Made by a program: the position numbers. From Vulcanimicrobiota bacterium (lineage in GTDB: Bacteria > Vulcanimicrobiota > Vulcanimicrobiia > Vulcanimicrobiales > Vulcanimicrobiaceae), in NCBI GenBank assembly GCA_003133025.1, contig PKZK01000010.1, positions 1 to 7,074 of the forward strand: 7,074 nucleotides of DNA, in the 5' to 3' direction. Shown here in pieces: positions 1-7,074 of the stretch. The stretch's first letter is position 1, and each line of letters begins with the position of its first letter.

Positions 1-3000
1 TCCGAGCGTTCGCAACGAGCCATCCTGTGGTGGGGCGTGGTCTTCCTTGGGATCTTTATGGTGGCCTGGATTTTCCTGCTGCAGATGGTCCCGCCCCCCT
101 CGCCGTGGCTGCCTGCCGCGGACGTCGCCGCCTACTACGCCGAGCACGCGTTCAAGATCAAACTGGGTGCGGTCATCGGCTCCTGGACCAGCGCCTTCAT
201 GGTGCCTTTTTCGCTGGTCATCGCGTTCCAGCTGGCGCGCATCGAGCAGGGCAAACCGGTTTGGTCGGTGTTGTGTTTTGCCGGCGGTTGTCTGATGTCG
301 ATGTTTCTGGTCTTTCCGCCCATCATCTGGGGCGTCATCGCCTTCGACCCGGCGCGTCCGCCCGACATCACCGCAGCTCTGAACCAGCTCGCGAACCTCA
401 CGCTGGTCACCACCGACCAGTTCTACATTTTTCAGATGATCGCCATCTGGCTGGTCGCCATCAAAGCCAAGCCGGATCCGCTATCGGCCTTCCCGCGCTG
501 GTTGGGCTGGGTGAACCTCTGGGTCGCGATCCTGTTCGAAGTCGGTGCACCGTCGTTCATGTTCAAGCGGGGGCCTTTTGCCTGGGATGGCTTGTTCGTA
601 TTCTGGTTTCCTTTCACGTTCTTCTTCTGCTGGCAGATTACGATGTACGTCAGCATGTTCGGTGCGCTGCGCCGGCAGGAACATGCCTCGGCGTTGCGTC
701 TCGAAGCGGCGACCGTGTGACGTGTGCGGCTCAGCGCTGCGGCGATGAGTTCTTGCGCCGCGCGTTTTTTTTGGTCCGCGCGTCTTTTGCGCCTCCCGAT
801 TTGCGCTTCGGCCCGGGACCCGTCGGTCTGGCGCTCGCCGGCCTTGTGCTCGCCGGCCCGGCGCTCGGGCGTGGTGATTCGGCCGGCGCGTGCGGCGGGA
901 CCTGCGACAGCATAAGGTCGCGAAACGCCTGCGCGGCCGCCGACATGCGCTTGTCGCGGCGATGCACGATGAACCAGTAGCGCATGATCGGAAAGCTCTC
1001 GACCGGCAGCACGGCGAGATGTCGCGTTTCGAGTTCGAGTTCGATGGTTTGCAGCGACACGACACCCAAACCCAGACCCGCACGTACCGCTTGCTTGATC
1101 GCCTCATTCGTATTGAGCTCGCACGCCAAGGTGTACCTGACCTTGTGCTGTGCGAAGTGGCGCTCGGCTGCGGCCCGCGTGCCGGAGCCCGTCTCGCGCA
1201 TGACGAGCCGCTCCTCATGCAGGCGCGCGAGACTCACGTGCGCGAGCCGCGCCAAGGGATGACTCGGGTCGGCAATCACCACGAGAGGATTGTCCATGAA
1301 GCGTTGTGCGTCGAGGTCCACGCCTTCGGGCGGTTCGCCGAGAATGGCGATGTCGGTCCGGTGGTCCGTCAAGGACGCAAGCACCGATTCCCGATTGCCC
1401 ACCTGCAGACTGATCTGCACGCCGGGATAACGTTCGTTATAGGCGGCGATCAAGGGCGGCAGGAAATAATTTGCCGTCGATACGACCGCAATTCGCAGCA
1501 GCCCGCGCTCGATGCCGCGGAATTGATCCATCGCCGATTGCAACTCGGTGAGCTGCGTGGCGAAGCGCTGCGCATGTCGGCGCAATTCCTGGCCCGCCTC
1601 GGTGACATACATGCGCCGACCGTTCTGCTCGAGCAGCGGCACGCCGATCTGCTCCTCGAGCTGCTTCATCTGCATCGACACCGCGGGTTGGGTCAGATGC
1701 ATCTCCTCCGCTGCCCGGGACATCGAGCTGTGGCGGGCGACGGATTCAAAAATGCGCAGTTGACGTAACGTGATTTGCATGGTCGCACCCGGTGAACGCG
1801 TGACTCACGGTCAATCCATCAGAGTAATTGATACATGCAGCAGAAGAACTGAATTGTTCTCGCACCGAAAGCTCACTAAGGTGGCCGCGCACCCCAAAAA
1901 GCGGTCAGGAGAGCAGCGTGGCAGAAAAAAGTTATACAGCCGGTGTCAAGGACTATCGAAAAACTTACTGGACTCCGGACTACGTGCCCCTCGACACGGA
2001 TCTCCTGGCAGTCTTCAAGATTGTAACCCAGAGCGGCGTGCCGCGAGAGGAGGCGGCGGCAGCGGTGGCTGCGGAGTCCTCGACCGGTACCTGGACCACC
2101 GTGTGGACGGATCTGCTCACGGATCTGGATTACTACAAGGGCCGTGCGTATCGCATCGAGCCGGTGCCCGGCGACCCCACCGCGTTCTACGCGTTCATCG
2201 CGTACCCGCTCGACTTGTTCGAAGAGGGATCGGTCGTCAACGTGCTCACCTCGCTCGTGGGCAACGTGTTCGGCTTCAAAGCCGTGCGCAGTCTGCGTCT
2301 CGAAGACCTCCGCTTTCCGCTGGCCTACGTGAAGACGTGCGGCGGCCCGCCCAACGGCATTCAGTTGGAGCGCGACCGGCTCAACAAGTACGGGCGTCCC
2401 TTCCTGGGTTGCACGATCAAACCGAAGCTCGGACTCTCGGCGAAGAATTACGGTCGCGCGGTGTACGAATGTCTGCGCGGCGGGCTCGACTTCACCAAGG
2501 ACGATGAAAACATCAATAGCCAGCCCTTCATGCGCTGGCAGCATCGCTTCGAGTTCGTCATGGAGGCCGTTCAAAAGGCCGAAGCCGAGACGGGCGAGCG
2601 CAAGGGTCACTATCTCAACGTGACCGCGCCGACGCCGGAAGAGATGTACAAGCGCGCGGAGTTCGCCAAGAGCCTCGGCGCGCCGATCATCATGCACGAC
2701 TTCCTCACCGCGGGCTTCACGGCCAACACGGGCCTGGCCAACTGGTGCCGCGAGAACGGCATGCTGCTGCACATCCACCGCGCGATGCANNTGTCTGCGC
2801 CTTTCCGGCGGCGACCATCTGCACTCGGGTACGGTCGTCGGCAAACTCGAAGGCGATCGCGAAGCGACGATCGGCTGGGTCGACATGATGCGCGAACCCT
2901 TCATCCCCGAGAACCGCTCGCGCGGCATCTTCTTCGATCAGGATTGGGGCGCGATGCCCGGCGTGATGCCGGTCGCATCGGGCGGCATCCACGTGTGGCA

Positions 3001-6000: not shown

Positions 6001-7074
6001 ATCGTCGTGGGCGACGCGCTCGACGACGTGCAACTGCGCAACCTCGTCTTCCAAGCCCANNGCGTCCGCGCCCGGCGTCTGGCCGACGCGATCCTCGCGC
6101 GCTACGCACACCTCGCGGGTACCGGTTCGCTCTGCGTTCGTGCGATCGCGCGCGGCAGCGACGGCCTCATTACGGAGCTCCACGCGTGAAGATTTGTCAA
6201 GTCGAAGGTACGCTCGTGGCCACCGCTCGCATCAGTGGCCTGCAAAACCGGCGTCTGCTGGTCGTCAAGGAGCGCGGCAGCAGCGGTAAGCAAGTCGCGG
6301 TCGATCCCGTGGGCTGCAAGCCCGGGGATTGGGTGATCGCGGTGGGCAGCTCGGCCGCGCGCGATGCCGCGGGCAGCAAGGATTACCCGAGCGACCTGAC
6401 CATCGTGGGCATCATCGACTACTGGGATGAAGCCGGCGGCCGCGCGGGAGCATAACGATGCAGATTCATCGCGTCGTGCGCGACATGGTCACGAGCAAAC
6501 GCAATTTCTGGCTCGCCTCAAAATCGCTGCGCGTCGTCGAGGATTGCGTCGGCAACCTCGAGGTCGCGCTCGATCCGATCGGCGCCAAGCCGGGCGATTT
6601 CGTCGTGACCATCGGCGTGTCCGCGGCACGCATTGCGGCCGGCAATCCGAAGATCACGACGGATCTGACCATCGGCGGAATCATCGATCATTGGGATGAG
6701 GTGCGCTGGCGCTCGTGAGCGCGGCGCGATACATCGATTTTCATGGCAAGCAATTCACAGCGAAGGAGAACGAAGATGGCAAGCGAAAAAATGGGCATCG
6801 CGCTCGGCATGATCGAAACCCGCGGCCTGGTGCCGGCGATCGAAGCCGCTGACGCAATGACAAAGGCCTCNNCCGCATTCCGAGGTCGAACAGATTCTGC
6901 CGCTGCAGACGACCGAATCGGGCGCTGGCACGCGCAGCTGATCGTGGGCAACCGGCTGACCCGCGAGGATGCGGTCGAGGCGGGGCGCGTCACGCCTGCG
7001 GTGATCGGCTGGTTGCAGCGTGCCCTGCGGCACGAATTCGCGGCCGCCCGCCAGTTCACGCTGCAGGCGGTGGT

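Follow-up and report, generated by a model that had tools for sequence, protein, structure and literature searches.

An alpha-carboxysome gene cluster with form IA RuBisCO in Vulcanimicrobiaceae, on a contig that is probably chimeric within cbbL

A canonical alpha-carboxysome gene cluster with form IA RuBisCO is supported, by gene order, phylogeny and composition, as belonging to the Vulcanimicrobiaceae lineage of the present genome (G000). The contig that carries it, C199, whose entire length of 7,074 nt constitutes the window analysed here, is best explained as an assembly chimera joined within cbbL, with the native carboxysome cluster beginning at about 2240, a reading to which we assign a probability of roughly 80%. 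Bases 1 to about 2230 would then derive from a co-occurring organism similar to the source of the metagenome contig L174, and the native part would comprise the remainder of cbbL, cbbS, csoS2, csoSCA, csoS4A, csoS4B and csoS1, possibly along with a ferritin-like gene. For comparison we used three Vulcanimicrobiaceae relatives, labelled G239, G299 and G376.

Pfam searches agreed with the initial annotation on the gene order (LysR/cbbR, cbbL, cbbS, csoS2, csoSCA, csoS4A, csoS4B, csoS1) and on the families involved (RuBisCO_large_N, RuBisCO_large, RuBisCO_small, CsoS2_M, CsoSCA_cat, two EutN_CcmL and the start of BMC), and the four NN joints at 2790, 5510, 6060 and 6871 were located in the sequence. 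Form IA RuBisCO genes head the cluster, although a joint divides cbbL, the first third of which is foreign. The features of the window are as follows.

1..720 (+): membrane-protein gene, open at its 5′ end, without a Pfam family; putative foreign part of the chimera
731..1780 (-): LysR-type cbbR of proteobacterial type (HTH_1 and LysR_substrate); putative foreign part
1918..2229 (+): first third of cbbL, L174 type
2230..2258 (+): interval within cbbL in which the origin switches
2259..2789 (+): middle of cbbL, L174 type ended
2790..2791: NN joint inside cbbL; the frame changes and about 20 profile positions are lost
2792..3298 (+): 3′ third of cbbL, form IA (RuBisCO_large positions 164-299)
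3317..3658 (+): cbbS, 113 aa (RuBisCO_small)
3671..5122 (+): csoS2, 483 aa, free of joints (CsoS2_M)
5119..6189 (+): csoSCA, with NN joints inside at 5510 and 6060; some 170 aa absent relative to the 525 aa of G239
6189..6455 (+): csoS4A, pentamer vertex protein, whole (EutN_CcmL)
6458..6718 (+): csoS4B, whole (EutN_CcmL)
6743..6938 (+): csoS1, BMC hexamer, with the NN joint at 6871 inside (BMC positions 1-23)
6941..7072 (+): start of a ferritin-like (bfr-like) ORF, matching a ferritin-domain gene of L174

The four joints partly hide cbbL, csoSCA and csoS1. That cbbL is readable in two frames around 2790 was borne out by matches to RuBisCO_large_N/RuBisCO_large at 1828-2787 and 2792-3298, which lie in different frames; at this joint the RuBisCO_large profile breaks off at position 144 and picks up at 164. 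Because two joints cut csoSCA, its domains are partial as assembled, consisting only of positions 77-236 of CsoSCA_cat and 1-23 of CsoSCA_C. All interruptions sit at NN joints, 366 of which occur in the whole genome, and we therefore regard them as probable assembly gaps. The uninterrupted csoS2 scored 127 bits against CsoS2_M (cut-off 22); its product contains 17 [VI][TS]G motifs, the repetition of which serves as the definition of CsoS2 repeats, and ends in ...VTLSGGARG, as do the proteins of G239, Bradyrhizobium and L174. Two BMC-P vertex genes are present along with one BMC-H gene, csoS1, whose product is whole in G239 (111 aa). The contig had been described as ending in csoS1. It does not: the N-terminal 42 aa of CsoS1 are followed, beyond the joint, by a C-terminal piece of 22 aa in the frame ...PHSEVEQILP... 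with its stop codon (6873-6938), and then by the ferritin-like ORF start, which shares 81% amino acid identity over 27 residues with the ferritin-domain gene of L174. As this start resembles L174-type loci and no ferritin-like gene was found in the carboxysome loci of G239 or G376, C199 may contain a second foreign piece, e.g., at the ferritin-like end.

The arrangement of cbbR, cbbL and the genes that follow cannot be kept as native, as the origin of the sequence changes at about 2230-2258 within cbbL, away from the NN joints. In sliding windows, the identity of C199 to L174 was 90-98% from base 1 to about 2200 and 84-87% thereafter. The cbbL mismatches to L174 numbered 10 in 1918-2258 vs 79 in 2259-2789 (Fisher p 1.7e-9), with the sparse ones stopping at 2205 and the dense ones beginning at 2259. 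The interval 1918..2229 has 96.9% nucleotide identity to L174 vs 75.7-77.3% to G239 and G299, and right of the switch the identity to L174 is about 85.5% (85.7% over 2239-2789). Among eight control pairs without C199, the left third was the less conserved part in seven, and the eighth differed by 1 point. Suspicion had first fallen on the NN joint at 2790 as the site of the misjoin, but the sliding-window identities shifted the switch to 2230-2258. Trees of the two parts differed accordingly: 1918-2238 has L174 as its sister (support 100/98, starred), whereas 2242-2787 falls outside the starred clade of 16 rows that contains L174 and is itself weakly placed, in a polytomy with G239 and G299. 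AU tests against the opposite groupings, which were chosen after the trees had been viewed, gave p values of 8e-5, 1.3e-4 and 0.018; the second of these rejects a grouping of the middle of cbbL with the L174 clade. Composition changes along the contig as well. The overall GC content of 65.8% fits the value given initially, yet its apparent uniformity is misleading, with 62.2% for 1-2789 vs 68.1% for 2792-7074. The tetranucleotide make-up of 1-2789 lies in the lowest 4% among same-size windows of G000, that of the right part at the 46th percentile.

The genes left of the switch point away from the family. The product of the membrane gene is 97% identical to that of L174 (90-98% at the nucleotide level), and 200 other family genomes yielded a single weak match (E 4e-4, 24%). 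Its named relatives all belong to Pseudomonadota or Actinomycetota, the top one being a Betaproteobacteria MAG (77%), and the nearest locus of this gene, L100, has no adjacent cbbR or cbbL. The C199 CbbR is 93% identical to that of L174 and 59-65% identical to CbbR proteins encoded next to cbbL in loci of Pseudomonadota, Bradyrhizobium among them, whereas no orthologue was found in 300 family genomes (top identity 36%). Contrary to the earlier view that it matches the regulator upstream of the cluster in relatives, it shares only 31-33% identity with their LysR. A grouping of 1-2230 with the family rows was rejected by the AU test. Together, the membrane gene, cbbR and the start of cbbL do not have the affinities of native Vulcanimicrobiaceae genes. 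L174 has an alpha-carboxysome cluster of its own, flanked by an ornithine cyclodeaminase-family gene whose named relatives are Pseudomonadota. We considered whether L174-type contigs could themselves be family members and rejected this, as their flank genes reach 27-65% identity to G000 at best vs 65-76% for G239 and G376, and are no nearer to G000 than proteobacterial controls.

A second LysR gene with a cbbL start, reported for contig C215 of the same genome, was found. This LysR is 76% identical to that of G299 and 70% to that of G376, both of which adjoin cbbL, and 74-75% identical to the LysR of two more Vulcanimicrobiaceae/Eremiobacteraeota records. The final mismatch between C199 and C215 lies at 2229, the last base of C215 aligns to 2240, and in the tree its cbbL piece clusters with G239 and G299 (95/92, starred). 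Since C215 ends at a match to 2240 and carries a LysR of the family together with a family-type cbbL start, its end is likely the true left flank of the cluster, comprising the family's own regulator and the real beginning of cbbL. No second copy of the 3′ part of cbbL, of cbbS or of any cso gene was detected in G000.

Right of the switch, the affinities lie with the family. The 3′ third of cbbL encodes a protein 94-98% identical to those of the relatives; CbbS is 78-87% identical to theirs (79% to L174), CsoS4B 88-92%, and CsoS4A 99% to G239 and G376 vs 92% to Bradyrhizobium and L174. The closest matches of CsoS2 are the three family genomes (44-54%), and a single-protein scan of named genomes with CsoS2 gave no match. 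A starred clade unites the right part of C199 with G239 and G376 (99/96), and the same family clade, with G239 as sister, was recovered after metagenome contigs were added to the tree (SH-aLRT 96). Analysed by itself, the catalytic piece of CsoSCA (5512-6059) gave no resolved tree; with this exception, the stretch from about 2240 to 6870 behaves as native sequence. Hence, the initial judgement that the locus is native rather than a contaminant stands for this stretch, on the strength of the clade, the composition, the link to C215 and the flanks of the cluster in G376, and falls for the first ~2.2 kb, and the carboxysome claim survives without the C199 cbbR.

CsoS2 relatives occur, as stated before, in at least three of 400 other genomes of the phylum, all from Vulcanimicrobiaceae and representing three genera; the count is a lower bound because of the stricter filter applied here. 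Including G000, carriers of the cluster amount to four of the 401 sampled genomes (four genera, one family). The shared gene order could be followed in G239 and G376 up to dabB, and up to dabA in G239, where all genes of the cluster are whole and CsoSCA has complete N, catalytic and C domains. All three CsoSCA domains are also present in G376, whose csoS2 reads in two frames; inspection of the junction gave no evident cause. The G376 cluster resides on a 415-kb contig, and the claim that its flanks hold counterparts of G000 genes stood to the extent that two ORFs there are 76% and 71% identical to contig C29 of G000, with flank matches to G000 genes ranging over 62-76%.

Several other explanations were weighed against an assembly chimera. 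The contig could be genuine if natural recombination with a donor resembling L174 had replaced the left flank of the operon, regulator and first third of cbbL included; C215 would then represent a separate LysR-cbbL locus. The switch in similarity between left and right would fit this as well as it fits a misjoin, and many Proteobacteria possess two copies of form IA genes, as described in passages of PMC12175532 and PMC3368242. However, the end of C215 at 2240, inside the 2230-2258 interval, would then be a coincidence, whereas it is expected of a branch in the assembly graph; moreover, G000 contains only one set of cbbL 3′ part, cbbS and cso genes, a LysR of the C215 type directly adjoins the carboxysomal cbbL in G299 and G376, and the left part is atypical in composition. 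We consider such a recombinant improbable. Another possibility is that all of C199 is a proteobacterial binning contaminant and that G000 lacks a carboxysome cluster of its own. The proteobacterial type of cbbR and the membrane gene would agree with it, as would similar clusters on many metagenome contigs from outside the family and the closeness of CbbL to Bradyrhizobium that had been pointed out before (96% to Bradyrhizobium denitrificans over 290 aa). Against these stand the position of the right part within the family clade next to G239, its tetranucleotide make-up typical of G000, and the form IA cbbL start of family type that C215 already bears beside a family LysR, which make contamination of the whole contig highly improbable.

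The cluster might also be native yet decaying or unused, the breaks in cbbL, csoSCA and csoS1 being real damage and no carboxysome being made. Besides these three interrupted genes, the two-frame csoS2 of G376 could be taken in this sense, and so could Allochromatium vinosum, which has a cluster although carboxysomes were never reported there according to the accessible parts of PMC3368242. Every interruption in C199 coincides with an NN joint, however, the genes of G239 are all whole, and the 99% conservation of CsoS4A over three genera argues for selection. Decay is thus, in our estimate, very unlikely, and a chimeric contig with a native cluster to the right of about position 2240 is preferred.

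If the native cluster is expressed as its genes predict, form IA RuBisCO and CsoSCA would be enclosed in a shell of CsoS1 and CsoS4 organised by CsoS2, and together with a DAB-type CO2 pump, cells bearing bacteriochlorophyll genes would be able to fix CO2 at air levels. Carboxysomes in Vulcanimicrobiaceae are in this sense a prediction from genes alone. The genes bchL, bchB and those for PRK and DabA are present in G000 as annotated, and reaction-centre genes are indeed absent from the assembly (no Photo_RC found, at 80% completeness); paired Photo_RC genes and BchB occur in all three relatives. We considered whether the DabBA of contig C43 could be the missing right end of the operon and rejected this: its identity to the DabBA that is linked to the operon in the relatives is just 40-43%, for which reason we regard it as a paralogue. 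Transfer from a group of such loci in which Pseudomonadota predominate would have brought the cluster into the family, and in G299, G376 and G000 it would now adjoin the family's own LysR regulator. A more far-reaching scenario, which we rate somewhat below even odds, is that a phototrophic subset of the family swapped its usual non-IA form I RuBisCO for a transferred alpha-carboxysome and DAB module beside its own LysR and builds carboxysomes. If true, they would be the first case of a CO2-concentrating organelle in anoxygenic phototrophs other than Pseudomonadota, and photoautotrophic growth at the CO2 and O2 levels of air would be possible for them.

Bogs, mosses and polar soils harbour Eremiobacterota (WPS-2) in abundance, and discussion of their carbon fixation has centred on form IE RuBisCO and trace-gas oxidation. 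The presence of a complete CO2-concentrating module in four genera would suggest carbon fixation at air-level CO2 despite O2, and it provides a concrete trait to seek in enrichments. The phylum would be the third, after Cyanobacteria and Actinomycetota, to have received proteobacterial alpha-carboxysome clusters. As its cbbL probably combines sequence of two organisms, the public C199 scaffold is unfit as evidence for the cbbR-cbbL arrangement or for RuBisCO phylogeny.

No published link between Eremiobacterota/WPS-2 and carboxysomes was found in the searchable literature; in texts naming both, the words occur unlinked. A catalogue of bacterial microcompartments (PMC8217296) contains no Eremiobacter in its main text or seven supplement files, and neither WPS-2 nor Vulcanimicrob in the latter. 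The sole cultured member of the phylum, as described in PMC9758169, performs aerobic anoxygenic phototrophy and has RuBisCO of type IE, and the words "microcompartment" and "polyhedral" do not occur in the accessible text of that paper on Vulcanimicrobium alpinum, a type IE strain.

Among 25 named genomes with carboxysome-linked loci, CbbL is 83-97% identical to that of C199. The closest counterparts are alphaproteobacterial, for example Bradyrhizobium denitrificans LMG 8443 (L012), an uncultured alphaproteobacterium (L013) and an Acetobacteraceae MAG (L018), which have the same order from cbbR to csoS1 (cbbR, cbbL, cbbS, csoS2, csoSCA, csoS4A, csoS4B, csoS1), CbbL 95-97% and CsoS4A 91-92% identical to C199, and which branch, together with L016, as sister to the family clade. 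They differ in host phylum, in the regulator, the family using another LysR that is 31-33% identical, and in CsoS2, where the identity is just 35-40%. The cso operon of Halothiobacillus, the model alpha-carboxysome, was represented by a Halothiobacillus MAG (L082) and shares the core of form IA RuBisCO, CsoS2 with [VI][TS]G repeats, CsoSCA, two CsoS4 and CsoS1. It is more distant (CbbL 83%, CsoS4A 66%, CsoS4B 46%), and CsoS2 is far shorter in C199, with 483 aa vs 752 aa for the L082 frame from stop to stop. The model operon also includes csoS1D, cbbQ/O and McdAB, none of which appeared among the Pfam matches of the scanned ORFs in the relatives' loci, where a single csoS1 was seen.

Carboxysomes had initially been portrayed as tied to Cyanobacteria and proteobacterial chemoautotrophs, which is too narrow in view of two published cases. 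Pseudonocardia sp. N23, an actinobacterium, has a horizontally acquired carboxysome locus without csoSCA, according to passages of PMC9164163, and resembles our case in that its alpha-carboxysome cluster lies in a host that is neither proteobacterial nor cyanobacterial and consists of genes placed among alpha- and betaproteobacterial ones. We found csoSCA absent in Pseudonocardia sp. SCN 73-27 (L025) as well, whereas it is full in the Vulcanimicrobiaceae loci of G239 and G376. The purple sulfur phototroph Allochromatium vinosum, as portrayed in the accessible sections of PMC3368242, has form IAc RuBisCO and an alpha-carboxysome cluster and likewise combines anoxygenic phototrophy and type II reaction-centre genes with a cluster whose organelle is unobserved; it differs in being a gammaproteobacterium with an anaerobic, sulfur-based phototrophic lifestyle. 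Since such loci have already been published from phototrophic proteobacteria and from an actinobacterium, the Vulcanimicrobiaceae cluster is best seen as a known system in a new host.

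The 3.35-Mb genome under study (265 contigs, 80% complete) contains 366 two-N joints; N runs occur in 169 of the 265 contigs. Contig C199 (7074 bases), which makes up the entire window, has such joints at 2790, 5510, 6060 and 6871, and every gene interruption in it coincides with an assembly joint. Genes were called from reading frames and Pfam matches. The gene list and order given in the initial annotation proved correct, but, contrary to what had been stated, csoS1 is not the last gene, since the start of a ferritin-like ORF follows it:

1-720, forward strand: membrane gene, open at its 5′ end, no Pfam family
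731-1780, reverse strand: LysR regulator (cbbR)
~1918-2789, then 2792-3298 in another frame, forward strand: cbbL, ~20 profile positions missing at the joint
3317-3658: cbbS
3671-5122: csoS2 (483 aa)
5119-6189: csoSCA with two joints; catalytic domain without its first 76 positions, C domain mostly absent
6189-6455: csoS4A
6458-6718: csoS4B
6743-6870 and 6873-6938, with a joint between: csoS1
6941-7072: ferritin-like ORF, first 44 codons, at the contig end

By its sequence, the cluster corresponds to the definition of an alpha-carboxysome locus, and the right part of C199 is the lineage's own. In a concatenate of the C-terminal part of CbbL with CbbS, CsoS4A and CsoS4B (22 rows), it groups with two family relatives, G239 and the Candidatus Eremiobacteraeota MAG G376 (starred clade, 99/96). 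When 12 metagenome contigs were included along with the catalytic piece of CsoSCA, a quick tree returned the same clade (SH-aLRT 96), separate from a four-row clade (support 99) containing L174, a metagenome contig closely similar to the left part of C199; the CsoSCA catalytic segment by itself gave a tree without resolution. The tetranucleotide make-up of 2792-7074 lies at the 46th percentile of the genome. Flanks of L174-type contigs are no nearer to this genome than proteobacterial controls; those of G239 and G376 reach 65-76%. On the 415-kb G376 contig, the genes found at 44.3 kb and at 89.2-94.6 kb have matches of 58-76% that lie next to each other on contig C29 of our genome. The genes on both sides of an 89-N scaffold gap in C29 (3496-3584) match genes ~45 kb apart in G376 (C11, 44-89 kb), and the G376 carboxysome cluster sits within that interval; a rearrangement, an island or coincidence might account for this difference in spacing. 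The ferritin-like start is 81% identical (aa) to a gene of L174, and a search of the G239 and G376 loci found nothing comparable; the stretch past the joint at 6871 may belong to the lineage or be a further foreign piece. The claim that the locus is native and not a contaminant holds for ~2240-6870, by clade and tetranucleotides, and fails for bases 1 to ~2230, which are L174-like.

The cbbR of C199, formerly counted as part of the operon, is outside the carboxysome system: its product is 31-33% identical to the LysR adjoining cbbL in G376 and in the Vulcanimicrobiota bog MAG G299, against 93% to L174. Its identity to the CbbR adjoining cbbL in Bradyrhizobium denitrificans and other Pseudomonadota is 59-65%, and the best value across 300 family genomes is 36%. 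For the membrane gene, 200 other family genomes yielded one weak match (E 4e-4, 24%, unpublished genome). Its named relatives are Ferribacterium, Hydrocarboniphaga, Sphingobium and similar, the nearest named record being a Betaproteobacteria MAG (77%), and none of 74 loci with this gene has a Vulcanimicrobiota title. L174 (19.6 kb), found by scanning metagenome contigs with the C199 CbbR, is 97% identical in the membrane gene, 92% in CsoS4A, 79% in CbbS and 38% in CsoS2. In tetranucleotide make-up, 1-2789 belongs to the lowest 4% of windows of its size in the genome.

One 8141-base contig, ~1 kb longer than the window, is the sole recorded source of a 242-aa protein identical to the membrane gene; it may be the same scaffold with gaps at full length. 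Among the first 50 metagenome contigs matched by C199-type CbbR (L174-L203), a full alpha-carboxysome cluster occurs on at least 14. A ferritin-like gene is also present on L174-L180 and L194; on L174 there are, in addition, a NUDIX/TenI fusion and dabB, and the named neighbours of its flank genes are Pseudomonadota.

In 200-base windows, C199 and L174 are 90-98% identical from 1 to ~2200 and 84-87% beyond. Within cbbL, 10 mismatches fall in 1918-2258 (the last at 2205) and 79 in 2259-2789 (Fisher p 1.7e-9). For this pair, identity is 96.9% in the left third of cbbL and 85.5% in the right part; in control pairs without C199, the left third of cbbL was less conserved in seven of eight, and the eighth differed by 1 point. 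Another contig of the genome, C215, has at its end a LysR gene 76% and 70% identical to that of G299 and G376, respectively, beside the first 107 codons of a further cbbL. C215 differs from C199 for the last time at 2229, and its final base aligns to 2240; together with the mismatches to L174, this places the switch within 2230-2258, away from the NN joint. In trees, 1918-2238 is sister to L174 (starred, 100/98), the C215 cbbL piece groups with G239 and G299 (starred, 95/92), and 2242-2787 falls outside the starred 16-row clade containing L174. In AU tests, whose groups were chosen once the trees were known, a grouping of the left third and the family rows was rejected at p 8e-5, one of the right part and L174 at p 1.3e-4, and one of the right part and eight L174 relatives at p 0.018. 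C199 is best read as an assembly chimera, whose misjoin would have arisen at a short identical cbbL stretch common to two co-occurring organisms. A natural recombinant appears improbable to us, since it would make the end of C215 at the switch coincidental. Under a chimeric assembly, the true Vulcanimicrobiaceae locus would run from C215 (LysR, cbbL start) into C199 from ~2240.

In further records of the family (L264, 8022-10906; L267; L263), a C215-type LysR (51-75% identical to that of C215) divergently adjoins a distinct form I RuBisCO, with no cso genes found near the pair in these three. This RuBisCO is 62-65% identical to the N-terminal 290 aa of the window CbbL in two records; L263 holds its start alone, at a contig end. 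Such an arrangement suggests placement of the transferred module next to the family's own regulator, a step we infer, and hints that it replaced the family's usual cbbLS there. A search for non-IA form I RuBisCO in our genome found none. Contig C232 (8587-8988) encodes a distant relative of the large subunit (26% over 136 aa) that may be a RuBisCO-like protein.

CsoS2 matches occurred in at least three of 400 other phylum genomes, all of the window's family and from three genera, reproducing the earlier count, and in none of 104 genomes of 20 other families in the phylum sample; as the search filter was stricter, these counts are lower bounds. The cluster is thus present in at least four of 401 sampled genomes. 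The gene order previously noted for two relatives was seen in G239, where all genes are whole, and G376: cbbL-cbbS-csoS2-csoSCA-csoS4A-csoS4B-csoS1, then a NUDIX/TenI fusion gene and dabB, with dabA in G239. Identities of the relatives to C199 are 94-98% for CbbL, 99% for CsoS4A, 88-92% for CsoS4B, 78-87% for CbbS and 40-54% for CsoS2. The fusion gene (NUDIX/thiamine-phosphate-synthase-like, TMP-TENI), between shell genes and dabB, is common to family loci (L009, 5502-6539; the G376 locus L010, 6672-8192) and the L174-type locus (L174, 1362-2399). In G376, the csoS2 match is split over two adjacent frames (C11, 74348-75776; L010, ~10850-10912) and an ORF beginning in csoS1 continues into the NUDIX gene, both probably indel errors of that assembly.

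Of the genes reported for this genome, bchL (TIGR01281, 367 bits vs a cut-off of 345), BchB, PRK and DabA are present. The DabBA of contig C43 shares just 40-43% identity with the DabBA linked to the operon in the relatives. Photo_RC had no match in this 80% complete genome, whereas G239, G376 and G299 each have two adjacent Photo_RC matches and BchB (G239 also a third, weak fragment); the relatives thus give the firmer ground for pairing phototrophy genes with the carboxysome cluster.

In the literature searched, we found no link between Eremiobacterota/WPS-2 and carboxysomes; Eremiobacter is absent from the main text of the BMC catalogue, and seven of its supplement files lack Eremiobacter, WPS-2 and Vulcanimicrob. 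Published work describes a second RuBisCO copy, of form IA, in some WPS-2 bins that are phototrophic (PMC6664022), type IE RuBisCO in cultured Vulcanimicrobium alpinum (PMC9758169), and carboxysomes as "primarily" in Proteobacteria and Cyanobacteria (PMC9164163). The sister group of the cluster consists of alphaproteobacterial loci and one gammaproteobacterial MAG, within a wider clade that includes Actinomycetota MAGs. Three Actinomycetota (Acidimicrobiia-type) MAGs, L021 (2.96-Mb contig), L022 and L029, have complete alpha-carboxysome clusters including csoSCA; their CbbL is 88-91% identical to that of the window. Although the contig behind the finding is best regarded, from its sequence, as a composite, the cluster is a standard alpha-carboxysome module, gained by transfer, in a new host phylum, where it would encode a predicted organelle. 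Comparable published cases are the purple sulfur phototroph Allochromatium vinosum, with form IAc and an alpha-carboxysome cluster (PMC3368242), and Pseudonocardia sp. N23, to which a csoSCA-less locus was transferred (PMC9164163); the cluster of Pseudonocardia sp. SCN 73-27 (L025) resembles the latter in having no csoSCA match.
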